From contig JAPPFC010000030.1 in NCBI GenBank assembly GCA_028824015.1, forward strand, positions 98 through 64,097: DNA of 64,000 nt, read 5' to 3'. Positions 9,076 through 63,879 of this stretch are shown here, piece by piece. Each line of letters starts with the position of its first letter. The first letter of the stretch is position 1. The stretch is from a bacterium. Its GTDB lineage: Bacteria > Actinomycetota > Acidimicrobiia > Spongiisociales > ZC4RG35. Position numbers and translations under genes: made by a program. The notes beneath the pieces were generated by a model. The model had not been told where the DNA came from and ran no database searches. It worked only from the letters and a program-made list of their open reading frames with translations.

Positions 9076-9738
9076 ATGACAGGTTTGCCGCCCGGGCGCC
9101 GGGTTGCAGTGTTCGCAGGCGGCGACTCACCCCCGGTCCAGGCCGCACGGTGGATTCCTGGAGGGACGTTCGTCATAGCCGCCGATTCGGGGCTCGACCA
9201 CGCTCACCGTTTGGGCTTCGACGCCGACCTGCTGGTGGGCGACCTTGACTCTGTGTCCCTGGGCGCTTCCGATCGCCACCGCGGAGAGGTGGAGGAGCAC
9301 TCGGAACACAAGGACCACACCGACCTGGAGTTGGCGTTGGAGGCAGGGCGGAGGAGAGCCGACGTCATGGTGGTGGTGGGCGGTCACGGAGGGCGACTGG
9401 ACCACCTGCTGGCCAATGCCGAGTTGCTGGGCGACCACCGTTGGGCTGGTTCGGAGATACTGTGGCTGGCCGGTGAGGATCTGGCGACCGTGGTCCGCCA
9501 TCGGGCCACGCTCCACGGGAGACCCGGAGACTTGGTGTCCCTCATTCCCGTGGGCGGTCACGCCATCGGTGTCACCACCAAGGGTCTACAGTGGTCCCTG
9601 CAGGAGGCCACCCTGGCGGCCGGAAGCACCCGGGGCGTTTCCAACCGGTTGACGGGCACCGTAGCCGAACTCGCCGTTCGCCAAGGGGTGCTGCTGGCTG
9701 TTCAACCGGGCGCAGTCCTGACCGGACCTGGGACTTAA
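9076..9738 (+). CDS. Thiamine pyrophosphokinase
   Basis: Motifs GDLDS, KDHTDLELAL, GGHGGRLDH, SLIP, TTKGLQWSL. This is the C-terminal in-frame part of the long spurious ORF 7915-9738. ATG at 9076. Confidence 0.7.
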   Translation: MTGLPPGRRVAVFAGGDSPPVQAARWIPGGTFVIAADSGLDHAHRLGFDADLLVGDLDSVSLGASDRHRGEVEEHSEHKDHTDLELALEAGRRRADVMVVVGGHGGRLDHLLANAELLGDHRWAGSEILWLAGEDLATVVRHRATLHGRPGDLVSLIPVGGHAIGVTTKGLQWSLQEATLAAGSTRGVSNRLTGTVAELAVRQGVLLAVQPGAVLTGPGT

Positions 9739-9826
9739 CCTTCAGCCAGAGACTGTGTCTATTTCTTGACTACATGGTTACTGTTGGCGATCCCGGAGCA
9801 ACGAGGCGAGGGCCTTCGGGCTCCTT

Positions 9827-10795
9827 TCAGTTGTAGACCCCCGGGTTTGCGCACCACGGCAGGCGTCTTCCCGCAACGCCGGCCAGGAGGTTCTCGACGG
9901 CTCGGGTGGCCATGGCCAATCGGGTGCCGCGGCTTGCCGATCCCAGGTGGGGTATCACCAGGCAGTTGGGTAGGGAGAGCAACTCGTGGTCGGCGGGGAT
10001 GGGCTCGGGTTCGGTCACGTCGAGCGCCGCCGATCCGATCCGGCCGGACCGGAGAGCCTGGTAAAGCGCGGCGGGATCCACCAGGGGCCCGCGGGCGATG
10101 TTGACCAGGGTGGCGGTGGGTTTCATCCGGACAAGGGCGTCATGGTCGATCAGGTGATGGGTCTCGGGGGTGTAGGCGGCGGTGACCACCACGTGGTCGG
10201 CCTCCGAAAGGAGGTCTGCCAAGCCCCTGTAGGCGGCCCCCGTCTGCTCCTCCACCTCCGGCTTGGGTGACCGGGAGTTGTACACCACCCGCATCGAGAA
10301 CCCCGACGCCCTTCGGGCTACCGCCGCGCCTATCCTGCCCATTCCCACGATTCCGAGGGTGGTCCCCCACAGGTCGCTTCCCAGCAGGAGGTCCGGGTCC
10401 CACTCCTGCCAGTGGCCCCCTAGCACGTAGTCCCTTCCCTCGGGGATGCGCCGGGCGGCGGCGGCCAGGAGCGCCCAGGCCATGTCGGCGGTGGTCTCGG
10501 TGAGGACGTCGGGTGTGTGTCCAACCGGTATTCCCCGGCGGGTGCAGGCGTCCAGATCGATGTTGTCGACTCCCACCGCCATCTGGGACACGACAGTCAG
10601 TCGATTACCCGCCTCCAGAAACTCGTCATCCACGCGGTCGGTGAGCATGACAAGTGCTCCGTGGGCGTCTGCGATTCGCTCCAGGAGCAGCCTTCGGGGC
10701 ATGGTCCGGTTCTCCGGCCAGGTCCAGACCTCGTGTCCCTCCAGCAATTGTGCCGCTCGAGGACTGATGGGCCTGGTTATCAATACCCTCGCCAT
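9827..10795 (-). CDS. D-isomer-specific 2-hydroxyacid dehydrogenase (glyoxylate/hydroxypyruvate reductase-like)
   Basis: NAD-binding GIVGMGRIGAAVARR, plus catalytic-region residues typical of the family. Confidence 0.8.
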   Translation of the reverse strand: MARVLITRPISPRAAQLLEGHEVWTWPENRTMPRRLLLERIADAHGALVMLTDRVDDEFLEAGNRLTVVSQMAVGVDNIDLDACTRRGIPVGHTPDVLTETTADMAWALLAAAARRIPEGRDYVLGGHWQEWDPDLLLGSDLWGTTLGIVGMGRIGAAVARRASGFSMRVVYNSRSPKPEVEEQTGAAYRGLADLLSEADHVVVTAAYTPETHHLIDHDALVRMKPTATLVNIARGPLVDPAALYQALRSGRIGSAALDVTEPEPIPADHELLSLPNCLVIPHLGSASRGTRLAMATRAVENLLAGVAGRRLPWCANPGVYN

Positions 10796-10852
10796 GGCAC
10801 CCGAGAGGATACCTCTCCCTGTGGCGGCCAGGTTGGCGGACCCTGCGGAGGG

Positions 10853-18083: not shown

Positions 18084-18959
18084 TCAGGGCTTCTCTATGG
18101 GCACCCCCACGGTGTTGCCGTACTCGGTCCAGGACCCGTCGTAGTTGCGGACGTTCTCGAACCCCAGAAGATGGGTGAGCACGAACCAGGTGTGGCTGGA
18201 TCTCTCCCCGATCCGGCAGTAGGTGATCACTTCGTCGCCCGATGACAGGCCGATCTCGCTCTCGTAGATGGATCTCAGTTCATCGGCGTCCTTGAAGGTG
18301 CCGTCGTCGTTTGCGGCCCGCTTCCAGGGCACGTTGTTGGCCGCCGGGATATGCCCGCCTCGGGTGGCTCCCTCGTTCGGGTATCCGGGCATGTGGAGAC
18401 GCTCCCCGCGGAACTCCTCGGGAGACCGGACGTCCACCAGCGGGTTCCCGGCCTTGGAGTGGTCGAGAACCAGGGGAAGGAAGGCGCGGATTTGCGAGTC
18501 GTCCCGGTCGACCTCCGGGTAGTCGGCGGCGTCACGCTGGGTGGGGGCGGTGGTGAGCGGACGGCCCTCCTCTTCCCACTTCATGCGTCCGCCGTCCAGG
18601 ATCCGCACGTCGCGGTGACCGAACAGCGAGACCACCCACAGGGCGTAAGTGGCCCACCAGTTGAAATTGTCTCCGTAGAAGACCAGGGTGGAGTCAGGAC
18701 TGATTCCCTTGCTGCCCATCACCGCTGAAAAACCGTCGCTACCCAGGTAGTCCCTGATCAAGGGGTGGTTGAGATCAAGATGCCAGTCGAGGTTGACCGC
18801 TCCGGGGATGTGCCCGGTGTCGTAGAGGAGGGGATCCTCGTTCGACTCCACCGGTATGACGTTCGGGTCATCCAGATGCTCGGCCAACCACTCGGTGGTG
18901 ACCAGCATTCCGGGGTGGGCGTAGGCGGAAAACTTGGGGTTGGGTGCGGTGTCAGACAT
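18084..18959 (-). CDS. sseA: Thiosulfate/3-mercaptopyruvate sulfurtransferase (tandem rhodanese)
   Basis: Two rhodanese domains. Active-site CRIGERSS with the catalytic Cys. Confidence 0.85.
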
Positions 18960-50020: not shown

Positions 50021-50167
50021 TCTTGAGGGAACAGCATCGGTTCTCTCGGCATCCACAAGCAGATAGTGCGAAAACAGTTGGTTCCGGAATTCGAAAGGAG
50101 CGTCATTCTTCACACTCCAACCCCAATAAACACGCTTTGGACCATTGGAAAGAGAAAGGAATGGCTA

Positions 50168-52228
50168 ATGAAGAGACTTTTAGTGTTGCTCTTGGTGGTC
50201 GGTCTGGTGGCGGCCGCATGCGGCGACGACGAGGCGGAAGTCACCCCGGACGAGATCGGCGACGAAGTTACAACCACCCCAGAGGAGTCGGACGAGGCCG
50301 AGCCGACCCCGACCGCGCCTGAGGAAGAGGCCGAAGTCACTTTGGATGAGTTGAATGTGGCTTACTTTTTGGAGTGGCCCACGGCCAACCAGGTTGCTCA
50401 GGCGGAGAAGACCTATGACCAGGCGCTCGGCGTGACCGTGAACTGGATACCGTTTGCCAGCGGAGGTGACATGGCACAGGCCATGGAGGCCGGAGACATC
50501 GACATCTCCTATTCCCAGGGGTTGACGCCCTTTGCCAACTTCGTGACGGGAGGTGCGGACCTGGTTCTTGTCGGGGTGGCAGTGGCTTACGCGGATGCCG
50601 ATAACTGCGTGGCCCATCCTGACTACGGCGTCACCAAGGAAAACGCCGCAGAGACCCTGGCCGGCCAGAGCATCTACACGCCGCTGGGGAACGTCACTCA
50701 TTTCAAGCTTTTGAAGATGTTGGAGCATCTGGGGGTTGAACTTGACAGTGTCGAGTTGATCCAGTCCGAGGGTGGACCGGCGGCGGTAGCCGCGCTTGAC
50801 ACCGGCAACGTGGCCATGGCGTGCGCGTTCGGCGGTGCCGTCAACGCCATGATCGCCAACGGCGGCAACCTGGTGATGACCGGTACGGAGCAGGAAGCCA
50901 TCGGGATCCGGGTGTTCGACATCATCTCGACAACCGGCACCTTCGCCGCTGAACATCCCGACGTCATAACTGCGTTCCTGCAGGTGACCGAGGACGCCAA
51001 CCGTGCTTACAACGATGACCGGGAACCGTTCATCGACACCATCGCAGGTGCGGCTGGTATGGACCGCGCTTCGACCATCGCTCTGCTGGACGCGTTCAGC
51101 TTCCCCGAAAAGGACGCGCAGCTTTCGGATGCGTGGCTCGGGGGAACCGTGCAGTCTGTGATGAAGGAGCAGATGGACTTCTTCGTGGAACAGGGCGAGA
51201 TCGACTCGGCCCTCGCCGACTACAGCCAGTTCGTGGACACCAGCTTCCTCGAAGGGGTCACGGCCAGAGAGGTCGCGATGACCGATGCCACGCCCGAGAT
51301 GACCTTGGATGAGTTGAATGTGGCTTACTTTTTGGAGTGGCCCACGGCCAACCAGGTTGCTCAGGCGGAGAAGACCTATGACCAGGCGCTCGGCGTGACC
51401 GTGAACTGGATACCGTTTGCCAGCGGAGGTGACATGGCACAGGCCATGGAGGCCGGAGACATCGACATCTCCTATTCCCAGGGGTTGACGCCCTTTGCCA
51501 ACTTCGTGACGGGAGGTGCGGACCTGGTTCTTGTCGGGGTGGCAGTGGCTTACGCGGATGCCGATAACTGCGTGGCCCATCCTGACTACGGCGTCACCAA
51601 GGAAAACGCCGCAGAGACCCTGGCCGGCCAGAGCATCTACACGCCGCTGGGGAACGTCACTCATTTCAAGCTTTTGAAGATGTTGGAGCATCTGGGGGTT
51701 GAACTTGACAGTGTCGAGTTGATCCAGTCCGAGGGTGGACCGGCGGCGGTAGCCGCGCTTGACACCGGCAACGTGGCCATGGCGTGCGCGTTCGGCGGTG
51801 CCGTCAACGCCATGATCGCCAACGGCGGCAACCTGGTGATGACCGGTACGGAGCAGGAAGCCATCGGGATCCGGGTGTTCGACATCATCTCGACAACCGG
51901 CACCTTCGCCGCTGAACATCCCGACGTCATAACTGCGTTCCTGCAGGTGACCGAGGACGCCAACCGTGCTTACAACGATGACCGGGAACCGTTCATCGAC
52001 ACCATCGCAGGTGCGGCTGGTATGGACCGCGCTTCGACCATCGCTCTGCTGGACGCGTTCAGCTTCCCCGAAAAGGACGCGCAGCTTTCGGATGCGTGGC
52101 TCGGGGGAACCGTGCAGTCTGTGATGAAGGAGCAGATGGACTTCTTCGTGGAACAGGGCGAGATCGACTCGGCCCTCGCCGACTACAGCCAGTTCGTGGA
52201 CACCAGCTTCCTCGAAGGCGTGGACTAG
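50168..52228 (+). CDS. NitT/TauT-family (NMT1/ThiY/SsuA-like) ABC substrate-binding lipoprotein containing an in-frame tandem duplication of the whole binding domain
   Basis: Lipoprotein signal MKRLLVLLLVVGLVAAACG. The mature region 50342-51254 is identical to 51305-52217 (offset 963 bp = 321 codons). Confidence 0.7.
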   Translation: MKRLLVLLLVVGLVAAACGDDEAEVTPDEIGDEVTTTPEESDEAEPTPTAPEEEAEVTLDELNVAYFLEWPTANQVAQAEKTYDQALGVTVNWIPFASGGDMAQAMEAGDIDISYSQGLTPFANFVTGGADLVLVGVAVAYADADNCVAHPDYGVTKENAAETLAGQSIYTPLGNVTHFKLLKMLEHLGVELDSVELIQSEGGPAAVAALDTGNVAMACAFGGAVNAMIANGGNLVMTGTEQEAIGIRVFDIISTTGTFAAEHPDVITAFLQVTEDANRAYNDDREPFIDTIAGAAGMDRASTIALLDAFSFPEKDAQLSDAWLGGTVQSVMKEQMDFFVEQGEIDSALADYSQFVDTSFLEGVTAREVAMTDATPEMTLDELNVAYFLEWPTANQVAQAEKTYDQALGVTVNWIPFASGGDMAQAMEAGDIDISYSQGLTPFANFVTGGADLVLVGVAVAYADADNCVAHPDYGVTKENAAETLAGQSIYTPLGNVTHFKLLKMLEHLGVELDSVELIQSEGGPAAVAALDTGNVAMACAFGGAVNAMIANGGNLVMTGTEQEAIGIRVFDIISTTGTFAAEHPDVITAFLQVTEDANRAYNDDREPFIDTIAGAAGMDRASTIALLDAFSFPEKDAQLSDAWLGGTVQSVMKEQMDFFVEQGEIDSALADYSQFVDTSFLEGVD
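50342..52217 (+). repeat. Near-perfect direct tandem repeat: 915 bp at offset 963 bp
   Basis: The 100-aa antisense ORFs 50698-51000 and 51661-51963 are identical. The 579-aa antisense ORF contains the same ~200-aa block twice. Direct comparison of 50342.. and 51305.. agrees. Confidence 0.85.
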
Positions 52229-52313
52229 AGGGCGACTCGTAAATGATCACCGGTGGGCCAGGATGCTCCTTGGGTTGGTCCTGGCTCACCGGCCCCCATT
52301 GAAGGAGCAATAG

Positions 52314-53687
52314 GTGCAAGGAGTCGTTGACGGGCTGGCAAGAGCCTTTGGCGCGGTCACACAGGGTGTTGCCGCCTCTGCCGACCTGTTTGCTTGGGTT
52401 GCGTTGGCCGCGGCGGCCGCGGCGACGGTGTGGATGATCGTCAATCTCCTGGCTACACCCTCGGGGCGGTTCGTCGCTGCCGACCGGGCTGCTTTGCCCA
52501 GCGACGGCACCCTGCTGGTCGGACAGGTCATGGCGTTGACCGCTCTGTTGGTCGGCGTGGTTCTCTCGTTCCAGGAATCTCCCGCGGTTTGGCAGTCTGT
52601 GGTCCCAATGGTCGGCGGCGGCGCCCTGCTGGCCCTGTTGGTGGTCTACCGGCGCTCCGCCGACGACCGCCAGGCCCGTATGGCGCATGCTGTGTGGCTG
52701 GCCCTGGCCGTGGCAGTCGCCGCGTCTACTCTCGTCGCCTATCTGGTGCGTTCGGGTTCGGCAATCGTCTATTTGACATTGCTCGGGTTGGCTCTGCTGG
52801 TCGCCAGGGCCTGGCTTTTCATCGGGCGCCCTGAGGTGCGTTTCGATCCCTCCCAGTTGACGGTGACCACCGATTCGCGGACGGATCATCCACTGGTGGT
52901 GGAAGACGTGGGGATGATCTACGACCTGCCCGACGGCGGTCAAGTGGAAGCCCTGGCCAATGTCAGCTTCACATTGGAACCGGGCCGGTTGCTGACCTTG
53001 CTCGGCCCGTCGGGCTGTGGCAAGACCACACTCCTGAACATAGCGGCGGGATTCCTGGCGCCCACCTCGGGCGTGGTGAGGCTGGGAACCCAACCCATCA
53101 CCGGACCCGGCCAGGACCGGGGCATGGTCTTCCAGCAGGGAGCCCTGTTCGAGTGGCTCACCGTCAACGACAACGTGGGGTTCGGCGCCCGCATGAACGG
53201 CAGGTCCCGGCCCGCGTCCCGCGAGGCAGTGCAAGACCTGCTGCGCACCGTCGGACTGCAGGGATTCGGGGACAAGGCCGTCTATGAGTTGTCGGGCGGG
53301 ATGCAACAGAGGGTGGCTCTGGCTCGCTGCCTGGCCAATGACCCCGAGATCATCCTGATGGACGAACCCCTGGGGGCCCTGGACGCTCTCACCCGGGAGA
53401 AAATGCAGGCGCTGGTGCTGGACCTGTGGAACAAGACCGGCAAGACCATCATCTTGGTGACCCACAGCGTCGAGGAGGCCCTGTACCTGGGAGACCAACT
53501 CTTCGTGATGGCCCCCCGCCCGGGCCGCATCGAACGGCGATACGACTTGCCCTTCGCCAAAGAAGCCCTCACCGCCGATGCCCGTGAGTTGAAGACCTCG
53601 TCGGAGTTCATCTCGACCCGCGAGGAAATCCTCACGATGATCTGGGAAATGGAGGAACAGATCATGGGGACCGAGGGAGGCCGCTGA
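52314..53687 (+). CDS. ABC transporter ATP-binding protein (SsuB/TauB type) with an N-terminal ~190-aa 4-TM membrane extension
   Basis: Walker A GPSGCGKTT, signature LSGGMQQRVALAR, Walker B ILMDEPLGALD. The upstream in-frame region has four clear hydrophobic helices. Confidence 0.75.
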   Translation: MQGVVDGLARAFGAVTQGVAASADLFAWVALAAAAAATVWMIVNLLATPSGRFVAADRAALPSDGTLLVGQVMALTALLVGVVLSFQESPAVWQSVVPMVGGGALLALLVVYRRSADDRQARMAHAVWLALAVAVAASTLVAYLVRSGSAIVYLTLLGLALLVARAWLFIGRPEVRFDPSQLTVTTDSRTDHPLVVEDVGMIYDLPDGGQVEALANVSFTLEPGRLLTLLGPSGCGKTTLLNIAAGFLAPTSGVVRLGTQPITGPGQDRGMVFQQGALFEWLTVNDNVGFGARMNGRSRPASREAVQDLLRTVGLQGFGDKAVYELSGGMQQRVALARCLANDPEIILMDEPLGALDALTREKMQALVLDLWNKTGKTIILVTHSVEEALYLGDQLFVMAPRPGRIERRYDLPFAKEALTADARELKTSSEFISTREEILTMIWEMEEQIMGTEGGR

Positions 53688-54748
53688 TGGCGGAGACAAG
53701 ACCCCCCGACAGCGGCGGCGTGGGAACCATTAGGGGCACTCTCGCCGCGCTGTTCAGGCGATTCGGGTACCGCCGTGGAGGCACCGAAAGCGCCGGGAAG
53801 ACGGTCACCTTCGGCGACGCGGCGGTGGTCAAAGGCTCCCTGGCATGGACCATCCCCAGCCTCCTGGTCATCTTGGCGGTGTGGTATCTCGCCACCAACG
53901 TCTGGGGGATGCCCCAAGAGTGGGTAGAGCACGGAGAACAGGTTCGAGCGGGCCTGTCCGCCGACGAGAGCTACGGCCAGCGGGACCTACTGAGGGACTG
54001 CGAAGCCTCCCAAGAAAACCCGGGTGACTACCCCGGTCTCCCGCCCTGCTCCTACACCCAGTGGGTGAGCGAACGGGTGCTGCCCAGCCCGGCACAACTC
54101 TGGGACGCCTCGTGGAACTTCGCCCTGTACGGCTACAGCGGATTCTCGATGTGGGACCACCTCTGGTTGAGCTTCAGCCGCCTGGCCAAGGGACTCTTCT
54201 GGGGAGTCATCCTCGGCGTGCCCATCGGCCTGGCCATGGGTCTCTCCAATCGCTGGCGCGGAGTATTCGATCCCATAGTCGAGTTGCTCAGACCGATTCC
54301 GCCCCTGGCCCTCATCCCGCTCTTCATCGTTTGGTTCGGAATAGGCGAAGAGGGCAAGGTGAACCTGCTCCTGTTCGCTTCGATCTGGATCATGGTCATC
54401 GCGGCCCGCTCGGGCGTGCTGGCGGTGAACATCAGCAAGGTCCATGCCGCCTATTCGCTGGGCGCCTCCAAATCACAGATCCTCCGACACGTCATCCTCC
54501 CAAACGCCCTGCCCGAAATACTCACCGGAGTCCGGGTAGCGATAGGAGTGTGCTGGGGCACCCTGGTGGCGGCCGAACTCCTGGGCGCCAGTGCCGGACT
54601 GGGATTCACCATCTTCAAAGCCCGCCAGTTCTTCCTGCTGGACCTCATGCTCTCCGCAGTGATCCTCATCAGCATCCTCGGCGTAACCATGGACATCGTC
54701 ATGCGCATGGCCGAAAAACGCCTCATCCCCTGGCGAGGAAGAGGCTAA
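53687..54748 (+). CDS. ABC transporter permease (SsuC/TauC type)
   Basis: ATGA overlap with the ATPase stop. EAA-like loop region (ASKSQILRHVILPNALPEI). An extended Cys-containing periplasmic loop after TM1. Confidence 0.75.
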   Translation: MAETRPPDSGGVGTIRGTLAALFRRFGYRRGGTESAGKTVTFGDAAVVKGSLAWTIPSLLVILAVWYLATNVWGMPQEWVEHGEQVRAGLSADESYGQRDLLRDCEASQENPGDYPGLPPCSYTQWVSERVLPSPAQLWDASWNFALYGYSGFSMWDHLWLSFSRLAKGLFWGVILGVPIGLAMGLSNRWRGVFDPIVELLRPIPPLALIPLFIVWFGIGEEGKVNLLLFASIWIMVIAARSGVLAVNISKVHAAYSLGASKSQILRHVILPNALPEILTGVRVAIGVCWGTLVAAELLGASAGLGFTIFKARQFFLLDLMLSAVILISILGVTMDIVMRMAEKRLIPWRGRG

Positions 54749-54873
54749 GGGCGAGCCTCCGGTCCTCGGGAGCCTCTTTCTTTAGAAGGGGAACTGTCGT
54801 ACCTGAGTGCCAAAAGAAACTGGGAGGAGCCACCCCGCGGCAAGGACACAACTCGATTTGGTCCGTCCGTCAA

Positions 54874-55512
54874 TCAGCCAGTCGATTCTGTTGTCGAACC
54901 TGGGGCAACACTGCCCATCAACTTCGCAAAGAGGGCAAGCCAGTTTTGTTCGGACGGAATGTAGGGATCCGCCAGTCCGGCAGCCAACAACAGATGGGTT
55001 CCGATTCCGATCGCTTGACAAAACAGCGTCAAGGCAGCGGTGTCCTGTTGGGAGTCGCAGAATCCCTCGTCCTTGCTCCTCTCGATCATCACGCCCAACT
55101 GGTGGGCTTGATCGTTTAGGAAACCCTTGAGGCGTTCTTGGATGACCTCGTTGTTGCGGGCGCTGCCGAACACCTGCACCAGCACGTCTTTTGTTTGTTC
55201 AGGCTGCAACAGTTGGGCTGCCCACCCCAGGACCATAACGGTTGTGGGCAAGTCCGCGATACCCATGTCCCTGATCCTCTGTTCGGGCAATAACTGCTCG
55301 AAGAGATGGTCGAGGGCAGCGGCCATCAGATCACTTTTGTGAGGCCACCGCGGGTATACCGCACCAGGGGTGACCCCGGCGCGGCGGGCGATGTTGCTGA
55401 TGACTGCCTTGTCATACCCGCGTTCTACGAACTCTTCGGCGGCAGCCTCCAGCACCCGCCTCGCGGTCTCCTCCGAGCCGCGTCGCCGACGTAATCTGAC
55501 TTCGGTAGGCAT
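54874..55512 (-). CDS. TetR-family transcriptional regulator
   Basis: N-terminal HTH (RRVLEAAAEEFVERGYDKAVISNIARRAGVTPGAVYPRWPHKSDL). Confidence 0.75.
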   Translation of the reverse strand: MPTEVRLRRRRGSEETARRVLEAAAEEFVERGYDKAVISNIARRAGVTPGAVYPRWPHKSDLMAAALDHLFEQLLPEQRIRDMGIADLPTTVMVLGWAAQLLQPEQTKDVLVQVFGSARNNEVIQERLKGFLNDQAHQLGVMIERSKDEGFCDSQQDTAALTLFCQAIGIGTHLLLAAGLADPYIPSEQNWLALFAKLMGSVAPGSTTESTG

Positions 55513-56246: not shown

Positions 56247-56840
56247 TTGGGTCAGTTCGGCCCGACTTTTGCTACTAGTCGGGGTGTCCGGCGCTTCTCT
56301 CACAGCGGCCTGTACGCGTTGGGTGTGTTGGTGTCTTCAACGCTGTTCTTACTGGGGGTCTCGGCTGCGGGGGTGTGGTTCAAGGAGATGGCGGGCCGCC
56401 GGACCTCGGTAGCTGTTGCATTGGCGCTGGCTGGACTGCTGTTGCTCTTGGACGGGATGAGGTTGTGGGGCGGGCGTTCTACTTCTTTCGGGCCGAAGCG
56501 GCAGACTCCTTACGACTGGCGGTTGAGAGGGCGGGTGGGTGTTGTCGCCTGGGGTGTCGACACGGGTTTGCCTGTTTCGACGGTGAGAGCCACGCCGTTG
56601 CCGGTGCTCGGTGTGATCCTTGCTGCTACTGGTCATTCGCTCTGGTTTTACGGACTGTTCTATGGGTTCGGTTTGACGTTGGGTGTGCTGGCCGGGTTGC
56701 CGTGGGCCCGCTCGTTCGTCCGGATTGATTGGGCGATGGCGGAACTGCAACGCAGGCATCGTAGGATCAACCCGGTTCTACTGGTCGTTCCGAGTGGCCT
56801 GACGGTGGTTGCGTTGGTGTCAGCGTTAGTCCTTGGCTAA
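56247..56840 (+). CDS. Hypothetical membrane protein (4-5 TM)
   Basis: 197 aa, hydrophobic helices. First gene of the co-oriented cluster. Confidence 0.45.
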   Translation: MGQFGPTFATSRGVRRFSHSGLYALGVLVSSTLFLLGVSAAGVWFKEMAGRRTSVAVALALAGLLLLLDGMRLWGGRSTSFGPKRQTPYDWRLRGRVGVVAWGVDTGLPVSTVRATPLPVLGVILAATGHSLWFYGLFYGFGLTLGVLAGLPWARSFVRIDWAMAELQRRHRRINPVLLVVPSGLTVVALVSALVLG

Positions 56841-56872: not shown

Positions 56873-57307
56873 ATGTCGAGTGTGAGCGACATGCGGCGTT
56901 ACACCCGACCACGCCCGGGCCTTTATGGATCGAGTGAGTTCCTCGAGTTTCTCGGACGGCCGCTGGCGCAACCCGCTCAGCGTGATCGAGGTGGGGCTGT
57001 TGAGTCCGGAGCGGAGGCAGGGCATGGTGTTCTGGAGTTGGGCGTCAGCGAATCAAGACCAGACAGTGGATTCGTGAACGTGAGGCTGGACAGCACCGGC
57101 CAAGTCGTGCGGGCCAGGTTCAGCGGCTTCATCCCGGGGTATCGGCTGGCACCCGGGGATGAGTTGTGCGTGGAACTCGTGGACGATGGGTGGCGGACCG
57201 TTCCCGAAGTGCGTCACACTATCAAGCACCGCGATCGCATTGAATTCTGGGGGGTTAACCGCCTGACCGGTGAGTTCCGGCTCCTAGCCGAGAATTATTA
57301 CGAGTGA
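56873..57307 (+). CDS. Hypothetical soluble protein
   Basis: 144 aa, no recognisable motifs. Confidence 0.4.
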   Translation: MSSVSDMRRYTRPRPGLYGSSEFLEFLGRPLAQPAQRDRGGAVESGAEAGHGVLELGVSESRPDSGFVNVRLDSTGQVVRARFSGFIPGYRLAPGDELCVELVDDGWRTVPEVRHTIKHRDRIEFWGVNRLTGEFRLLAENYYE

Positions 57308-57314
57308 TCAAGCC

Positions 57315-57926
57315 TTGAACCTGGAGTGGATGGGTGTTCCGGTGCTGGTGGTGGCCGCGTTGCTTCTCTTAAGCGGCCTGCCGAAGATCGCAGATCCCAG
57401 ACCCGTGGCCGGAACCATGGAGTGGCTGTACGATCAGGTATCGGCACGCTGGCGCGGTTCGGGCGGTTCCCCGGTGGATCTGTCTCGTCCGGGCCGGTTG
57501 CTGGGACTGGCGGAGGTGGGTGTGGCCGGTTGGGTGGTGCTGGGACCGTCGTGGGGGGCGGCGGTCGCTTTGACTCTGCTGGCCGCGGGGTTCGCGGCGG
57601 CGGGCCTTGTGGGCGCCTTGTCTGACGTGCAGGTGGCTTGTGCCTGTTTCGGCAGGCAGGGGCGACCGCTGGGTTACTTTCATGTCCTGCTGTTTCCGGT
57701 CTGGGTAGGAGCGGCGTGGTGCGTGGGTCGGGTCGAAGGGTTCGGAGGGTTGGATGAGCGTTTGCTGGCGTTGGGGCTGTGCTGTGTTGGTGTCTTGTGC
57801 GTGTACCTGGTGAGGATGTGGGCGGCGTTGATGCCGTTGGCTCAGCACCGGCGTCGGGCAGCGATGCGGGTGGGTACTGTGACGCGGGTCGCCCATGGAG
57901 AGGCAGAGTGGTTGTTGCCGCGTTGA
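57315..57926 (+). CDS. MauE/DoxX-like membrane protein
   Basis: 203 aa, 4-5 TM, with the N-terminal VAALLLLSGLPKIADP pattern of the MauE family. Confidence 0.5.
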   Translation: MNLEWMGVPVLVVAALLLLSGLPKIADPRPVAGTMEWLYDQVSARWRGSGGSPVDLSRPGRLLGLAEVGVAGWVVLGPSWGAAVALTLLAAGFAAAGLVGALSDVQVACACFGRQGRPLGYFHVLLFPVWVGAAWCVGRVEGFGGLDERLLALGLCCVGVLCVYLVRMWAALMPLAQHRRRAAMRVGTVTRVAHGEAEWLLPR

Positions 57927-58498
57927 TCGTCTCCATAGTGGCCCTGGTGGTGAGTGCTCTGTGCGCGCTGGCGGTGATGGAGTTGCTAGCAAGTCGGTCC
58001 CACGGCAGGACGGAGGTAGATGACTCTCTGATCGAAGAGTTCGAGGTGCCGGCGAGCGTGGCTGGCACCGCCGCCAGTTCCCACGGTCTGCCGGAACGGA
58101 TCGACCATCTGGACCGTCATCTGGCTCTGTTCCTGTCCCCCATGTGTGCTCACTGCGCGGCGATCGCCTCCTCCCTGGGCGGGATGGTGCCTGATGACTT
58201 GACGGTGGTGGTAACCGCTTCTGCTCCCGAACGTATGCGTGTCTGGTCCCGGGATCGGGGCTTGTCGACTGACGACGTGGTCTTTGACGACGACATGTCC
58301 ATCGTGGGAAGCCTCAAGGTGGCGTCCAGCCCTACGGTGGTGGGCTTCGGCGCGGGCCGGGTGGTCTTTGCGGCCGGCATCGGAGGTAAGGCCGCGTTGG
58401 AGAAGTTGTTGGAGCAATGCTCTTCTGGGTTCTCCGAGGACATCTCTGATCTCTTGGGGCCAACGTCCGGGCAGGAACCCGGCGGCTCCCCGGGGTGA
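57908..58498 (+). CDS. Membrane-anchored thioredoxin-fold thiol:disulfide oxidoreductase (MauD/TlpA-like, CAHC active site)
   Basis: GTG start overlapping the MauE stop by 19 nt. N-terminal TM anchor, then LFLSPMCAHCAAI (CxxC). Confidence 0.55.
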   Translation: MVVAALIVSIVALVVSALCALAVMELLASRSHGRTEVDDSLIEEFEVPASVAGTAASSHGLPERIDHLDRHLALFLSPMCAHCAAIASSLGGMVPDDLTVVVTASAPERMRVWSRDRGLSTDDVVFDDDMSIVGSLKVASSPTVVGFGAGRVVFAAGIGGKAALEKLLEQCSSGFSEDISDLLGPTSGQEPGGSPG

Positions 58499-61400
58499 TT
58501 GCTTCGGCGGGTCCTCACGGTCGCGGCCAGGCGGGTCTCTGCGGGCGGCTGGCAGTGATATTCGTGACGGTGTTGCTCCTGATCACCGCGTTGGGACCGC
58601 TGGCGGCGGCTCAGGATGGAACGGGATCGGGTTCGGGTGTGTTTGGGGATGTGGGTCCGGGGCCGCATTGGGCTGCGGTTGAGGCGTTGGCGTCGTTGGG
58701 GGTGTTCGAGGGTACCGAGTGTGGTGAGGGGTTCTGTCCTGACGACCCGGTGCAGCGTTGGGTGATGGCGGTGTGGTTGGTGCGGGTGCTGGACCTGGCT
58801 TTGCCGGCGGTCGATGAGCCGCGGTTCGTCGATGTTGAGGCGTCGCAGTGGTGGTGGCGTTATGTGGAGGCGTTGGCGGAGGCTGGGGTGACGCGGGGTT
58901 GTGCCGAGGAGCCGGCGCGGTTCTGTCCGGACGGTTCGGTGTCTCGGTCGGAGATGGCGTCGTTTCTGGTGCGGGCGTTCGGGCTGGAGCCGGCGTTGGA
59001 GAGCGCGGGGTTTGTGGATGTGCCGGTGGGTGGTGCGAGTTGGCTTGATATCGAGGCTTTGGCTGCGAGTGGGGTGACTTCTGGTTGCGATGCGGAGGGG
59101 CCTCGGTTCTGTCCCGATCAGCCCACCACCCGCGCTCAGATGGCAACGTTCCTGTATCGGGCCATGACTCTTGGTGCGGGTTTTGGTGTGTTTGGGGATG
59201 TGGGTCCGGGGCCGCATTGGGCTGCGGTTGAGGCTTTGGCGTCGTTGGGGGTGTTCGAGGGTACCGAGTGTGGTGAGGGCTTCTGTCCTGACAAGCCGGT
59301 GCAGCGTTGGGTGATGGCGGTGTGGTTGGTGCGGGTGCTGGACCTGGCTTTGCCGGCGGTCGATGAGCCGCGGTTCGTCGATGTTGAGGCGTCGCAGTGG
59401 TGGTGGCGTTATGTGGAGGCGTTGGCGGAGGCTGGGGTGACGCGGGGTTGTGCCGAGGAGCCGGCGCGGTTCTGTCCGGACGGTTCGGTGTCTCGGTCGG
59501 AGATGGCGTCGTTTCTGGTGCGGGCGTTCGGGCTGGAGCCGGCGTTGGAGAGCGCGGGGTTTGTGGATGTGCCGGTGGGTGGTGCGAGTTGGCTTGATAT
59601 CGAGGCTTTGGCTGCGAGTGGGGTGACTTCTGGTTGCGATGCGGAGGGGCCTCGGTTCTGTCCCGATCAGCCCACCACCCGCGCTCAGATGGCGACATTC
59701 ATCAAAAGGGCCCACCCTGCCCTGGTGGCGTGTCCCAACGACATGCGGGAATCCGACCCCGAGGACGACACCAGCGGAGGTGGAGGCGGCGCCGGTGTCG
59801 GTGTCGGTGGAGGCGGCGGTGGTAGCGGTGGAGGCGGCGGTGGTAGCGGTGGAGGTGGAGGTGGCGGTGGACGTAGAACCCCAACCCCCGTTCCGACTCC
59901 GCAAGTTCCCGGAACGCCCCAGAACGTGTCGGCGGTGGGAGGGGACGAGTCGGTTGCCGTGGAGTGGTCGCCGCCGACCGATGACGGGGGGTCCCCGGTG
60001 ACCGGCTACCTGATCCGCTGGAAGCGGGCAACGCGAGCGACGTACAGCGATTCGAGACTGGCTGGTGCTGCGGCCCGCAGCATCGAGATCACCGGTCTGC
60101 TGCCCGCCACGCAGTATGACGTGTCCGTGGCTGCTGTCAGCGATGTCGGGGAGGGTGGCGCCGCAATCGTGCGGGCCACTACCCTGGATCCGCCTCCCGG
60201 CGCTCCCGGCGCCCCTCAGAACGTGTCGGCGGTGGGAGGGGACGAGTCGGTTGCCGTGGAGTGGTCGCCGCCGACCGATGACGGGGGGTCCCCGGTGACC
60301 GGCTACCTGATCCGCTGGAAGCGGGCAACGCGAGCGACGTACAGCGATTCGAGACTGGCTGGCGCTGCGGCCCGGAGCATCGAGATCACCGGTCTGCTGC
60401 CCGGTACGCAGTATGACGTTTCCGTGGCTGCAGTCAACGCATTGGGCACCGGCAGGTTCGAGGTCGGGCAGGCCACTACATTGGGCACCCCGCCCGATCC
60501 TCCCGGCCCGCCCCTCTCTGTGAACTTGGTTCGCGGTGTCGAGAGTCTCACCGTCACATGGTCGCCGCCCGCCGACGACGGTGGTACCCCGATCACGGGC
60601 TATGCCATGAGGTGGAGGAAGGAGAGTCAGCCGACGTCCTGGCTGCAGCGGTCGGTCGGATCCAACGAGCGCAGCACCGTTCTCGCCGACTTGGAGCGGG
60701 GGGAAGAATATCGAGTCGAGGTCTGGGCTGTCAACGATGCGGGAAATGGAACCAAGGTCGTCGAAATGGCCGAGCCGCTTGAGCTACCGGGCACGCCTCT
60801 GAGTGTGGCAGTGGTCGGCGGCATGGGAAGCCTGACCGTCTCGTGGTCACCGCCAACCGAAGACGGCGGATCGCCGATCACCGGATACCAGGTCCGTTGG
60901 AAACGGACCAACGAGTCGAGCTTCACCGACTCGACGAATCTGGGATCGGCAGTCCGTAGCTACCAAATCGTGAATCTGGACCCGGGCGTCGACTACCAGG
61001 TTGCGGTGGCAGCCGGAAACGTCGTCGGTCTCGGACCGGATTCCCAGGAGCAGTCCAAGGTGCCCGACGTGCCGCAAGCTCCGCTACTGCAGGAACCGGT
61101 GGTGGGTGAGGACAGTTTCATGCTGGAGTGGGCGCAACAAGAGGATGACACGGTGCCAATAACCGGGTACGAACTGCGGTGGAAACTGGCAGGGGCCACC
61201 AGTTACACCAACGAGCGACAGCTCTCGGCCGCCGACCGCAGTGTGGAGGTGCGCAACCTGACCGCCGGCACCGACTACGACGTGGCCCTCAACGCCACAT
61301 CCGCCAATGGCGATGGGCGGATCTCCGAAACGGAGGCGCAACTTATCGACGGACCGGCGCCGCCGGGTCCGCCCCGGGAACTGTCCGCGGTGCTCAGCCT

Positions 61401-63432
61401 CGACGGTTCCACAGTGTCCTGGTCGGCTCCCTACAGCGACGGCGGCTCGGCCATCACCAAGTACAAACTCAGTTGGTCCGGTCACACCAGCGGAGAAGCA
61501 GAGGTCACCGGTCTGAGCTACGAATCCGACGCGTTCAGTCTGAGCACCACCCACATGTTCCGCGTCTCCGCAGTCAATGCCGAGGGCGAAGGCACGCCAG
61601 CCCTGGCTGCCGCCACCATCGCCGGTCTCCCGCCGCCGCCCCAGGATCTGAGACTCGTGCCCGGCGACGGGAAGCTAACGGTCGCCTGGCTTTTGGTAAG
61701 GGGACCCTCGATCCCGCTGATCAGCGCCGGGCGGGTGACCGCTTACCGCGTGCAGTGGAAAAGTGGGGACCAGGACTACAGCGAGGACCGGCAGGCCGAG
61801 GTGCCGTCTCTTGACGACCTGCGTCACGACGATGTCGCGGTGCGCCATCAGCACGAGATCCCGTCGCTGACCAACGGAACGGTCTACACGGTACGGGTCA
61901 TGGCAGTGAGCGAGACGGGGGTTAGCCCGGGCGCCGAGGCGTCGGGCGCTCCTGCCGCGCCCAACCCCAACGCACCCACCGACCTGACTCTCTCTGTAGA
62001 TGTCGAAGAAGTGGATGTGCAATGGTCCGCACCCTCGGTGTCGAGTGGCGTCACCGTGGACGGTTACCGGGTCCAGTGGCGTCTCGACGGCGAGGAATAC
62101 GGTACGGAGGACTGGACCGAGGTGTCCGACACCTCGGCCACCGTCGAAGACCTGACTCCGGGTGAGTTGTACTTCATCAGGGTGACAGCGCTGCTCTCGG
62201 ACGACTCGGGCGGGTGGGCCGAGGCCCGTATCGCGCCCTTGGCCCTGCCCGGCGAGCCACAAGACCTCACCGCAGTCGGCAGCGGCGGTCTGGCGACCGT
62301 ATCGTGGTCCGCTCCTGATCCGGTCGACGGGGGTCCGGTGCTCGCCTACCGAGTGAGGTGGAGGGCCTACATCAAACAGGAGATGTACACAACACAGACC
62401 CAAATCGTTGCCGACCTACCCAACCGGGTGGCGACAAGAGTCGGAGTGGAGGCGGTCAACTCACTGGGAATAGGTCCATTGGTATGGAAGTCGGTAACGC
62501 CCCCGGCGCCGACCCGTTCCATCCGGGACCTGCAAGTCCGGTCAGGCGACGGCGTCCTGGACATCTCATGGCGGGCACCAACAGGTCAACCGAGCCGCGA
62601 CTACACGGTGCAGTGGCGGGCTTCCGACGAAACCTATGATGACTCCCGGTCGGCTCAAACCACGGACCGCCAGTACGAGATCACCAGCCTGAGGAGCGAT
62701 ATCCGGCATTTCGTGCGGGTCCGGGCGGAGAAGGGCGCCGACCTCGGGCAGTGGACCGAGATCTCGGCTCAGCCGGAGGGCTTCACGGATCGGCCGGACG
62801 CGCCGACCGGGATCGCCACCGCGGGCTCCGACGAGCGGCTGCTGGTCTCCTGGTCGGCCCCGTCCAACATCAACGGCTCCACGATCGGCGGGTACCTCGT
62901 GGAGTGGCGAACGGCCGGAGGAGAATACAACTCAGACGACCAGGCGGAAACGGATGCGTCGACGCTCAACCACCAGATCAGCGCGCTGACGAACGGCACT
63001 ATCTATGAGGTGCGGGTCCGGGCGCTGACCAGCGACGACCAACCCGGCGCGGCCATAACGGCGAGCGCAGTGCCGCTAGGTACTCCCGGAGCGCCCACCG
63101 AAACCGCTGTCGATGCCCGCCACGACATGCTGCTGGTGTCGTGGCTGCCGCCCACCAGCGACGGTGGAGCGCCCATCGACCACTACAGAATCTCCTGGAG
63201 GAGCGAGACGCAGAGCTTCCCCTCCAATGACTGCTCCGACCGGGTAACCTATGTCAGGTGGCCGAATGCCGTCATCACATTCGAAGGGTTCACACACCTC
63301 ACCGGTCGCTTCTTCGATTCCGTCAACCTTGTTCAGGGCCGCGAGTACTTCGTGCGGATCCAAGCCGAGACCTCCGAAGGGCGCGGTCCGGCAGCCGAGG
63401 TCTCAGCAAGAGTGCGCTTTGCTCCCCGCTAA
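58495..63432 (+). CDS. Giant secreted cell-surface protein: signal peptide, 2 x (3 SLH domains), Gly-rich linker, ~12 fibronectin type III domains
   Basis: GTG start overlapping the upstream stop (GTGA). Signal LLLITALGPLAAAQD. SLH-like units (FGDVGPGPHWAAVEALASLGVFEGTECGEGFCPD..., FVDVEASQWWWRYVEALAEAGVTRGCAEEPARFCPD..., FVDVPVGGASWLDIEALAASGVTSGCDAEGPRFCPD...). Linker GGGGGAGVGVGGGGGGSGGGGGGSGGGGGGGG. Repeated FN3 modules (GSPVTGYLIRWKR...YDVSVAAV). Confidence 0.8.
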   Translation: MIASAGPHGRGQAGLCGRLAVIFVTVLLLITALGPLAAAQDGTGSGSGVFGDVGPGPHWAAVEALASLGVFEGTECGEGFCPDDPVQRWVMAVWLVRVLDLALPAVDEPRFVDVEASQWWWRYVEALAEAGVTRGCAEEPARFCPDGSVSRSEMASFLVRAFGLEPALESAGFVDVPVGGASWLDIEALAASGVTSGCDAEGPRFCPDQPTTRAQMATFLYRAMTLGAGFGVFGDVGPGPHWAAVEALASLGVFEGTECGEGFCPDKPVQRWVMAVWLVRVLDLALPAVDEPRFVDVEASQWWWRYVEALAEAGVTRGCAEEPARFCPDGSVSRSEMASFLVRAFGLEPALESAGFVDVPVGGASWLDIEALAASGVTSGCDAEGPRFCPDQPTTRAQMATFIKRAHPALVACPNDMRESDPEDDTSGGGGGAGVGVGGGGGGSGGGGGGSGGGGGGGGRRTPTPVPTPQVPGTPQNVSAVGGDESVAVEWSPPTDDGGSPVTGYLIRWKRATRATYSDSRLAGAAARSIEITGLLPATQYDVSVAAVSDVGEGGAAIVRATTLDPPPGAPGAPQNVSAVGGDESVAVEWSPPTDDGGSPVTGYLIRWKRATRATYSDSRLAGAAARSIEITGLLPGTQYDVSVAAVNALGTGRFEVGQATTLGTPPDPPGPPLSVNLVRGVESLTVTWSPPADDGGTPITGYAMRWRKESQPTSWLQRSVGSNERSTVLADLERGEEYRVEVWAVNDAGNGTKVVEMAEPLELPGTPLSVAVVGGMGSLTVSWSPPTEDGGSPITGYQVRWKRTNESSFTDSTNLGSAVRSYQIVNLDPGVDYQVAVAAGNVVGLGPDSQEQSKVPDVPQAPLLQEPVVGEDSFMLEWAQQEDDTVPITGYELRWKLAGATSYTNERQLSAADRSVEVRNLTAGTDYDVALNATSANGDGRISETEAQLIDGPAPPGPPRELSAVLSLDGSTVSWSAPYSDGGSAITKYKLSWSGHTSGEAEVTGLSYESDAFSLSTTHMFRVSAVNAEGEGTPALAAATIAGLPPPPQDLRLVPGDGKLTVAWLLVRGPSIPLISAGRVTAYRVQWKSGDQDYSEDRQAEVPSLDDLRHDDVAVRHQHEIPSLTNGTVYTVRVMAVSETGVSPGAEASGAPAAPNPNAPTDLTLSVDVEEVDVQWSAPSVSSGVTVDGYRVQWRLDGEEYGTEDWTEVSDTSATVEDLTPGELYFIRVTALLSDDSGGWAEARIAPLALPGEPQDLTAVGSGGLATVSWSAPDPVDGGPVLAYRVRWRAYIKQEMYTTQTQIVADLPNRVATRVGVEAVNSLGIGPLVWKSVTPPAPTRSIRDLQVRSGDGVLDISWRAPTGQPSRDYTVQWRASDETYDDSRSAQTTDRQYEITSLRSDIRHFVRVRAEKGADLGQWTEISAQPEGFTDRPDAPTGIATAGSDERLLVSWSAPSNINGSTIGGYLVEWRTAGGEYNSDDQAETDASTLNHQISALTNGTIYEVRVRALTSDDQPGAAITASAVPLGTPGAPTETAVDARHDMLLVSWLPPTSDGGAPIDHYRISWRSETQSFPSNDCSDRVTYVRWPNAVITFEGFTHLTGRFFDSVNLVQGREYFVRIQAETSEGRGPAAEVSARVRFAPR
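58636..59733 (+). repeat. 549-bp near-identical tandem repeat (a triple-SLH block duplicated). A further 297-bp near-identical repeat lies at 59917-60510 (first two FN3 modules).
   Basis: Identical 66-aa antisense ORFs at 58848-59048 and 59397-59597. Only a few substitutions between copies (e.g. CPDDPV vs CPDKPV). Confidence 0.8.
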
Positions 63433-63459
63433 GCGGATGAACCCACCCCACTTCAATAT

Positions 63460-63879
63460 ATGAAGGCCGCTGCGGGGAAGCGATCCGGCCGGGTTCCTCA
63501 GGCTTTGCCTTCAGCCGCGGAGCAGAGTCGTGAGGCCTTGGCCTTCCCGCAGGGCAGTCCTCAAAGCCGCCGACAATTCCTGCGCATCGCGTCCAGGGCA
63601 GCCTTGTTAGTTCTGGCCGCCGGGGCGCGGGTCGTTCTCGACGCGTCGCCGGCGAACGCAAGAGAAGACCTGGACGTGGGATGCTGCGTACTCGCCCAGT
63701 ATCCGTCCCAATGGTGTCCTTTCATGTGCCAGGACTCCGGTCTTGTCCTGCGGTGCTGGACATGCAACTCAGGCCAATGCAAGTGCTGCGAGTGCACTGC
63801 CTTCGCGAGCGACGAGGAGGAGCCCAGTTGCTTCACCGGTTCTGCGTTCGCCTGCTCCTACAGGTCGGGTTGCTGCTGA
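63460..63879 (+). CDS. Tat-signal, cysteine-rich small secreted protein (14 Cys in the ~70-aa mature region)
   Basis: Twin-arginine motif SRRQFLRIAS, then an h-region and an ANA cleavage site. Mature part DVGCCVLAQYPSQWCPFMCQDSGLVLRCWTCNSGQCKCCECTAFASDEEEPSCFTGSAFACSYRSGCC. Unusually long (~38 aa) n-region. Confidence 0.6.
   Translation: MKAAAGKRSGRVPQALPSAAEQSREALAFPQGSPQSRRQFLRIASRAALLVLAAGARVVLDASPANAREDLDVGCCVLAQYPSQWCPFMCQDSGLVLRCWTCNSGQCKCCECTAFASDEEEPSCFTGSAFACSYRSGCC

Follow-up and report, generated by a model that had tools for sequence, protein, structure and literature searches.

The window analysed here, a stretch of 64,000 nucleotides from an Acidimicrobiia genome (contig JAPPFC010000030.1), carries close to its end an open reading frame (ORF), 63460-63879, whose product combines a twin-arginine translocation (Tat)-type signal with a short domain crowded with cysteines. 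This locus raises the question of what such a protein could be for, how its cysteines are dealt with once the chain has left the cytoplasm, and which partners it works with. A preliminary description of the DNA had offered a metal cluster, a metallothionein-like binder or multiple crosslinks for the cysteines, or else the precursor of a ribosomally made and post-translationally modified peptide (RiPP) whose maturation genes would lie past the end of the window. Our main result comes from the genomic context: the partner genes are found upstream, within the window, not past its end. They include genes for a MauE homologue, for a membrane-anchored protein with a CxxC motif and for a giant surface protein with S-layer homology (SLH) and fibronectin type III (FN3) domains. 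The reading that we favour, with a probability of roughly 0.6, is that the ORF encodes the Tat-signal precursor of a disulfide-knotted extracytoplasmic mini-protein, which would be matured by the MauE/MauD-like pair of the cassette and would act together with the SLH/FN3 giant.

A conserved family of cysteine-rich precursors

With 14 cysteines in 72 amino acids, the mature part of the protein is the densest Cys stretch of the window in all six frames, the next best holding 9. The latter, at ~56279-56728, was considered as a second Cys-rich gene and rejected, being an out-of-frame overlap of the gene for TM197, a membrane protein of the cassette. The Cys-rich protein itself matched no model in Pfam or NCBIfam, and 14 members of its family, compared to Pfam at E values of up to 10, gave only weak Tat-signal matches. 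A word-indexed search of 5.8 billion proteins with the single sequence returned one homologue (71% identity), preceded by the same gene on a contig of 1.9 kb. An exhaustive hidden Markov model (HMM) search of 1.84 billion representatives then yielded 13 matches, 12 of them convincing; P0012, a 482-aa repeat protein, was discarded because it matches only a CxxCxxxxCxxC stretch. Together with a further profile search and ORFs read from the loci, the family amounts to ~25 sequences of 38–78% identity, with Acidimicrobiia as its sole known hosts so far. Pattern scans of genome and metagenome contigs, based on a two-sequence alignment, returned none, the patterns being too specific, and the genomes that they missed were later reached through the CxxC protein.

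The Cys-rich ORF is a genuine coding gene, and its family is under selection. Over the c-region of the signal and the mature part (63628-63876), 22 synonymous and 18 non-synonymous codon differences separate it from its closest homologue (L001; L numbers denote the related loci), with every Cys kept between the two proteins. Its GC content at third codon positions (GC3, 0.74–0.76) is like that of the neighbouring genes, and frame, signal and Cys pattern are intact in the ~25 homologues, which lie at syntenic positions. The claim that 63460-63879 is a genuine Tat-signal coding gene is thus borne out by a conserved family and a synonymous excess, and the Cys pattern, whose lack of conservation would have spoken against that claim, is kept throughout the family alignments.

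It could still be argued that the ORF is a spurious or non-functional one in GC-rich DNA, as it was left uncalled on public contigs identical to the window and in L017-L020, where we found the gene by regular expression and tblastn. Against this stand the intact and syntenic homologues at 38–78% identity, the synonymous excess and a GC3 value as in the neighbours; conservation effectively refutes this explanation, which we hold to be extremely improbable. The two public contigs (L014/L015), reached via the small cassette protein p144, match the window exactly over the compared stretch, 63420-63810. Indeed, every locus reached through p144 displays an empty gap of 400–600 bp after the p144 gene, and in each case this gap holds an intact family member. 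Since the gene is uncalled in these loci, the Cys-rich family is strongly under-represented in protein databases, where it has ~17 entries versus 47 clusters for p144; in this manner, a conserved gene family can go almost unseen in public collections of proteins. The Cys-rich family has neither a Pfam or NCBIfam model nor a name in any source. The family, its Tat-type signal, its OB-fold partner and its invariable link to an SLH/FN3 protein all appear to be undescribed.

Linkage of the cassette genes

Linkage was followed by tblastn of six cassette proteins against every related locus, complemented by gene tables. Tables covering ±10 kb were read for L002, L007, L014/L015, L017 and L020, and the other loci were covered by tblastn for the six cassette proteins only. 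The gene for the SLH/FN3 giant adjoins the Cys-rich gene in every locus with visible context. The gene for p144 adjoins it in 13 distinct loci (the window, L002, L005-L008, L010-L013, L017, L019 and L020), and in L002, L005, L006 and L007 it either abuts or overlaps the start that was called for the Cys-rich gene. MauE and/or CxxC genes are present in the window and in L003, L005, L006, L010-L013, L017, L018 and L020, and TM197 co-occurs in L006, L010-L013, L017 and L020. Locus L017 has two modules, the first of which is the same as L018. Gene order is shuffled among the loci, which indicates functional rather than accidental linkage.

The same association emerged when the search was started from the CxxC protein. 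Compared alone to 185,579 species genomes, it identified four loci, each of them with a Cys-rich gene; all four belong to metagenome-assembled genomes of Acidimicrobiia (Candidatus Spongiisociaceae, two Acidimicrobiales and Candidatus Aldehydirespirator).

The module has also been amplified. L013 (1821-9986) and L017 (5073-18433) each carry two tandem SLH/FN3 - p144 - Cys-rich units, and L008 (5143-6017) has two adjacent Cys-rich paralogues.

A putative thiol oxidation pair

The MauE homologue (57315-57923) matches Pfam PF07291 with 34.4 bits, above the cutoff of 27 (E = 3.2e-08), and precomputed MauE matches are found in L005, L006 and L014-L016. NCBIfam gave no match for this protein, for p144 or for the CxxC protein. 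MauE homologues have been shown to replace DsbB in E. coli, and the loop that joins transmembrane (TM) helices 3 and 4 holds their active site, a CXC motif in which X is Gly or Ala and after which comes Phe-Gly (bioRxiv 10.64898/2026.03.05.709764). The window protein carries V-A-C-A-C-F-G in the loop after its third hydrophobic segment, as placed by reading the sequence, and the MauE homologues of L005, L006 and L010-L012 carry P-C-A-C-F-G. Judging from family and motif, the window MauE is probably a DsbB-like, quinone-linked thiol oxidase.

The CxxC protein has one N-terminal TM helix followed by an external domain, and its SPMCxxC and S-S-P-T/A motifs are invariant in 7 homologues. When it was aligned to E. 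coli TrxA using hhalign (probability 0.35%, E = 0.17), its CxxC fell on CGPC and its SSPTV on the cis-Pro loop GIPTL. Comparison to the Pfam Thioredoxin and Thioredoxin_2 models gave E values of 0.11–0.15, in 3/7 members only, and comparison to PDB profiles gave E values of 0.17–1.3. TALE matches that appeared in the latter search were dismissed as repeat artefacts. The positions of the two motifs suggest an outward-facing thioredoxin fold in a MauD/DsbA-like role.

MauE and MauD are both required for the six-disulfide small subunit of methylamine dehydrogenase (MADH), as reviewed in bioRxiv 10.64898/2026.03.05.709764, and this brings in a first rival for the function of the Cys-rich protein. 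It could be a small subunit with a protein-derived quinone, like MauA (tryptophan tryptophylquinone, TTQ) or QhpC (cysteine tryptophylquinone, CTQ), in which the conserved pair of Trp next to Cys would be converted to a Trp-derived quinone or a Cys-Trp crosslink and the MauE/MauD-like pair would serve as in MADH maturation. The presence of both genes in the cassette is what one would expect in that case, as are a Tat-type leader, also found in MauA, and two Cys-flanked tryptophans, one nearly invariant (W24) and one invariant (W39). However, apart from the weak Tat-signal matches mentioned above, the 14 members gave no match to the MADH light chain (PF02975) or to any other Pfam family at E values of up to 10. 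In the ±10 kb tables, furthermore, no radical SAM protein, LanB/LanM, MauG-like di-haem peroxidase, MauB-like propeller or flavoprotein maturase was called, and MauE has a distribution that is unrelated to that of MauA and works as a general oxidase (bioRxiv 10.64898/2026.03.05.709764). We thus consider a quinone-bearing subunit to be very unlikely.

Cysteine pattern and predicted fold

The mature part has 72 residues and exactly 14 Cys, in agreement with the domain of ~70 residues and 14 Cys that had been described, and its cysteines are grouped as CC, WC, MC, RCW, TC, QC, KCCEC, SC, AC and GCC. It does not contain two Trp-Cys dipeptides, as had been stated, but one W-C and one C-W. The window pattern, CC-x9-WCPxxC-x8-CWxC-x4-CxCCEC-x11-C-x7-C-x5-CC, becomes CC-x9-WCPxxC-x8-(C)WxC-x4-CxC(C)EC-x5-12-C-x5-9-C-x5-CC for the family, with an alanine-rich h-region upstream. 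In the numbering of the mature-domain alignment, no variation is seen at W39, E50 and G76 and almost none at W24, and 12 Cys positions are invariant or nearly so. The variable ones are Cys38 (of RCW) and Cys49 (the second Cys of KCCEC), which are both present in 19 members, both absent in 6, and found one without the other in 0; the replacement at Cys49 is always Tyr. The Cys count is 14 in 17/25 members and 12 in 5/25, and it is even in 22/25.

The AlphaFold2 (AF2) model of the mature domain, built from 17 sequences, has a mean predicted local distance difference test (pLDDT) score of 66.6, with a core at 78–85. It displays a helix at residues 25-31 (C-P-F-M-C), a beta-hairpin formed by residues 35-41 and 46-52, and a strand at residues 72-76, and residues 38 and 49 are cross-strand neighbours in the register of the hairpin. 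Because Cys38 and Cys49 are lost only together and oppose each other in this independently predicted hairpin, disulfides are favoured over a metal cluster; paired loss and adjacency point to the classic signature of a disulfide. The mature mini-protein is most likely held by six or seven disulfides, of which a Cys38-Cys49 bond is the one predicted from alignment and model. A Foldseek search with the AF2 model against 350,542 chains gave matches with E > 2 throughout, and neither the MADH light chain nor a defensin or toxin was among them; a comparison of the family sequence profile to the PDB gave noise only. Net charge ranges from -6 to +6 across the family, with a value of -5 for the window protein, and there is no conserved His in the family alignments.

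These data bear directly on the possibility that the protein is a metal-cluster or metallothionein-like cargo, whose Cys would be loaded with Cu(I), Zn or Fe-S while still in the cytoplasm and which Tat would export as a holo-protein. A Tat-type signal would suit such cofactor-loaded cargo, and a Cys density of 19%, with CC, CxC and CxxC spacings, is typical of metallothioneins. Against this speak, however, the loss of Cys38 and Cys49 strictly as a pair, with cross-strand adjacency and with Tyr in every case where Cys49 is replaced, the lack of a conserved His, and a regular secondary structure with an aromatic core, unlike the coil of a metallothionein. In addition, no ferredoxin, HiPIP, Rieske, DUF326/Csp or metallothionein model of Pfam or NCBIfam was matched, and the enzymes of the cassette are oxidising rather than metal-inserting ones. 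A metal-loaded cargo is, in our view, unlikely. Among the roles first proposed for the cysteines, crosslinks, in the form of disulfides, are therefore favoured over the metal options, given that Cys38 and Cys49 covary and that no cluster model matches. Nor does Tat export, which had been said to go often with a cofactor, demand one: MauA itself carries a Tat signal, and its 12 Cys form 6 disulfides.

Export signal and start codon

The motif S-R-R-Q-F-L-R occupies residues 36-42 of the Cys-rich ORF (63565-63585), and A-N-A corresponds to residues 65-67 (63652-63660). The h-region, AALLVLAAGA, is moderately hydrophobic, and R57 of the c-region is kept as R/H/Q/K across the family. When all six frames of the window were scanned for [ST]RRx[FL]L[RK], the single match was in this ORF. 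The Tat motif and AxA site that had been noted at the outset are confirmed by the family: RRx[F/L/I][L/I]R is present in every full-length member, and the spacing from RRxFLR to AxA is exactly 25 residues in every one. The Pfam TAT-signal models match some members only, and weakly (PF10518, E = 0.021 in 1/14 members). Export of the precursor would, on the strength of this signal, depend on Tat.

The position of the start codon affects the length of the leader. Starting at ATG 63460 it would have 67 aa, close to the ~65 aa of the preliminary description, and starting at TTG 63538 it would be the shorter one listed in Table 1. Conservation with the closest homologue, in both protein and DNA, begins only near the RR motif, and the 26 codons between the ATG and the TTG are unconserved. 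The GC3 value of this extension is 0.65, versus 0.74–0.76 downstream, the extension being too short for this difference to decide the start. The three closest homologues have ~8 residues before the RR motif, and the range across the family is 7–38. At least one long version, that of L005, looks real, since the stop codon of the gene before it shares bases with its ATG. ATG 63460 and TTG 63538 are equally plausible, and the RR motif is translated from either, such that the start does not lie downstream of it. The leader of ~65 aa thus holds for the ATG start and not for the TTG start, and is no family trait; similarly, the long n-region cannot be regarded as a family feature, being unconserved even in the nearest relative. 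It had prompted a comparison to MauA, which proves apt through the MauE homologue and the MauD-like CxxC protein encoded upstream, and not through the n-region. A promoter and terminator scan around the Cys-rich gene was uninformative.

The SLH/FN3 giant, p144 and TM197

The SLH/FN3 giant displays a Sec-like N-terminus, duplicated SLH modules, a Gly-rich linker and about 11–12 FN3 domains. Every SLH-like module has a Cys pair that is conserved (ECGEGFCPD, GCAEEPARFCPD and GCDAEGPRFCPD). The gene has undergone recent internal duplications (58583-59714 and 59920-60602): a ~549-bp unit with three SLH-like modules is repeated almost exactly, generating identical shadow ORFs at 58848 and 59397, and the FN3 part has two to three 297-bp repeats that share 81–91% identity.

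The p144 protein has no signal peptide; its N-terminus is disordered, and its core of ~85 aa is an OB-fold-like beta-barrel. Its homologues in L007 (~9510-10004) and L008 (~6102-6518) carry RTRRSLLAPL and RSRRALLGGL, respectively, in the disordered N-terminus, with no h-region after the motif. The subfamily of the window p144 has a conserved TRPRPGL-x-GS-x-EF helix in place of the RR-type motif.

The membrane protein TM197 matched neither Pfam nor NCBIfam. At least 7 loci have it together with the cassette, and its strongly conserved motifs are FVGQFGPTF, WGGRSTSFGP-x-RQTPY-x-WR and WG-x-DTGLPVSTVRAT-x-LP.

Surroundings of the cassette

On two large contigs, L002 (631 kb) and L007 (1.06 Mb), the operon closes with the Cys-rich gene, after which comes a convergent, unrelated gene. 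Contig L015 reaches past the window end and shows a 102-aa ORF fragment downstream of the Cys-rich ORF, just upstream of an HTH_38 fragment that resembles the N-terminus of an insertion sequence (IS) transposase. Because of this transposase-like fragment, we conclude that in this genome the end of the cassette is bordered by the remnant of a mobile element. A convergent gene ~2.1 kb past the window end encodes a 649-aa protein with ~20 repeats of the form D-x-T-x-x-CWG ... G-x-L-D-x-P-x-G-x-Y, which resemble RCC1/beta-propeller repeats. It is Cys-Trp-rich, has an N-terminal hydrophobic segment and no Pfam match on record, and in other loci we saw nothing that connects it to the cassette.

Upstream of the cassette lie the genes of an ATP-binding cassette (ABC) transporter (a 720-aa NMT1-like binding protein, an ATPase and a permease), and a divergent gene for a TetR-family regulator is located between the transporter and the cassette. 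Histidine-biosynthesis genes are found further upstream in the source contig. Neither the transporter nor the TetR or histidine genes recur beside the cassette in other loci.

The proposal of a RiPP precursor with maturases past the window end is not supported by this context, as the only features downstream are the ORF fragment, the HTH fragment and the convergent repeat protein, and as the gene closes its operon in L002 and L007. In broader form, this rival would have the protein be a RiPP precursor or a bacteriocin/defensin-like antimicrobial, with p144 as an immunity or modification factor. The product is indeed small and Cys-rich and has a leader, its CxxxC in a predicted helix and CxC in a strand recall the cysteine-stabilized αβ (CSαβ) motif, and candidate RiPP clusters that contain mauE and Cys-rich precursors have been proposed in Streptomyces (PMC7794033). 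The leader, however, has the make-up of an ordinary signal peptide, AxA site included, and not that of a RiPP recognition leader, and the cassette of the window and the ±10 kb tables hold no modifying enzyme beyond the thiol oxidoreductases (no YcaO, for example), no dedicated peptidase and no assigned ABC exporter; the ABC transporter of the window has an NMT1-like binding protein and lies beyond the divergent TetR gene. No defensin or toxin fold was matched, the charge range given above is not consistently cationic, and a constant SLH/FN3 partner is untypical of bacteriocin loci. A RiPP or an antimicrobial is thus an unlikely candidate.

Table 1. Coordinates of the cassette, of the Cys-rich precursor and of its surroundings (window positions unless a locus is named).
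Feature	Position	Strand	Remarks
Polytopic membrane protein TM197, 197 aa, Cys-free	56247..56840	+	No family match
p144	56891..57307	+	138 aa as called; ORF from ATG 56873 = 144 aa
MauE homologue, 198-203 aa	57315..57926	+	PF07291 and CXC-FG motif
Membrane-anchored SPMCxxC protein, 196 aa as called on identical contig	57908..58498	+	MauD/DsbA-like by motifs
Giant SLH + FN3 surface protein, 1645 aa	58495..63432	+	Pfam; directly upstream of Cys-rich gene
Cys-rich precursor ORF	63460..63879	+	139 aa from first ATG; stop codon 63877-63879
Alternative start of Cys-rich ORF	TTG 63538	+	In-frame, 113 aa, leader 41 aa
Tat-type signal	63565..63660	+	S-R-R-Q-F-L-R, h-region ASRAALLVLAAGA, basic R57, A-N-A cleavage motif
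Mature domain, 72 aa, 14 Cys	63661..63876	+	Family alignments
Uncalled Cys-rich gene, window	63460-63879
Uncalled Cys-rich gene, L014/L015	16570-16989
Uncalled Cys-rich genes, L017	~10459-10761, ~18119-18433
Uncalled Cys-rich gene, L018	~9326-9631
Uncalled Cys-rich gene, L019	~1917-2219
Uncalled Cys-rich gene, L020	~10532-10831
ABC transporter and TetR region, upstream of cassette	50066-55512
TetR-family regulator	54874-55512	-	Divergent
HTH_38 fragment, L015	17303-17785	+	Past window end
649-aa repeat protein, L015	17983-19932	-	Convergent; past window end

Proposed role of the mini-protein

The favoured reading, that of a disulfide-knotted mini-protein, can be laid out as a sequence of steps. 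The precursor would be made with a twin-arginine-type signal, with p144 possibly acting as its cytoplasmic chaperone or export partner, and the signal would be cleaved after A-x-A upon export. Oxidation would take place outside the membrane, through the DsbB-like MauE homologue with its CXC-FG site and, as a second enzyme, through the membrane-anchored, thioredoxin-like CxxC protein in the role of MauD or DsbA. The product would be an extracytoplasmic protein of ~65–75 residues with seven disulfides, or six in a subfamily, which most likely works with the SLH/FN3 giant at the cell surface, be it as an accessory, a cap or a ligand-binding module.

Several observations weigh against this reading. 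The MauE and CxxC genes are absent within ±10 kb in L002 and L007, both large contigs, and the pair is thus not a strictly obligatory neighbour of the Cys-rich gene. The Cys pairs in the SLH modules could just as well be its substrates. The statistics for a MauD/DsbA-like thioredoxin fold in the CxxC protein are weak, and the confidence of the AF2 model of the mini-protein is moderate (pLDDT 66.6). Annotation pipelines passed over the Cys-rich gene on both of the public contigs identical to the window. Lastly, Tat cargo is normally folded and disulfides are unexpected in the cytoplasm, a difficulty for the mode of export and for the order of events.

A bolder version would endow the mini-protein with a new protein-derived redox cofactor or crosslink, built from the invariant Trp, Cys and Glu, or with a metal centre. 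In this version p144 would be a Tat hitchhiker and the protein would be shown on the SLH/FN3 fibre as a redox or binding module. We see this as a long shot; if true, a MauA-like principle would have been reused in a different surface machine of Acidimicrobiia.

For the favoured disulfide-knotted protein, the cassette represents a compact system in which to study how a seven-disulfide protein can use a Tat-type signal and what part the OB-fold partner plays. Moreover, the invariable link to the SLH/FN3 gene hints at a part of the Acidimicrobiia cell surface that has so far gone unnoticed.

Comparison with known systems

The predicted topology runs from a helix that contains CxxxC to a beta-hairpin whose second strand contains CxC, and is in this respect reminiscent of CSαβ defensins and toxins. 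Membership in that group is nonetheless unsupported, there being no structural match and no consistently cationic charge.

A parallel in Actinomycetota comes from decRiPPter, which delivered three candidate cluster families in Streptomyces; all three contain mauE and one contains mauD as well, and every cluster encodes a predicted, uncharacterised precursor with at least 8 Cys (PMC7794033). As in the cassette, actinobacterial mauE/mauD genes stand beside a gene for a small Cys-rich peptide, outside of a mau cluster; the combination of MauE and a Cys-rich peptide is therefore not unprecedented in Actinomycetota (PMC7794033). What would distinguish the Cys-rich family from these predicted precursors is its Tat-type signal, its core of ~70 aa and its SLH/FN3 and p144 partners. 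The family fits a secreted mini-protein better than a RiPP.

Comparison to generalist MauE proteins is also instructive, since the C-A-C-F-G after the third hydrophobic segment of the window protein matches their CXC(FG) site (bioRxiv 10.64898/2026.03.05.709764). The assayed MauEs come from Calditrichota and Thermodesulfobacteriota and are general oxidases, whereas the window MauE, known from its sequence, lies in a cassette with an apparent dedicated substrate.

The MauA system is the closest analogue in logic. In both cases a small Cys-rich protein with a twin-arginine-type leader is linked to MauE and to a CxxC protein of the MauD type, and the logic is the same, namely that of a dedicated oxidative-folding pair for one difficult substrate. 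The Cys-rich protein differs from MauA in showing no sequence or predicted-fold similarity to it, and the cassette differs from the mau cluster in lacking MauB, MauG, amicyanin and other mau genes; assignment to the MauA family fails for three reasons, namely sequence, fold and the lack of MauB and MauG. The partners are here an SLH/FN3 protein, an OB-fold-like protein and a Cys-free membrane protein, unlike those of the mau system, and the hosts are Acidimicrobiia instead of the methylotrophic Proteobacteria of MauA. We know of no natural dedicated MauE substrate other than MauA, and the cassette offers a candidate for one: a 14-Cys mini-protein with a Tat-type signal, accompanied by a MauE/MauD-like pair, in uncultured and partly sponge-associated Acidimicrobiia.

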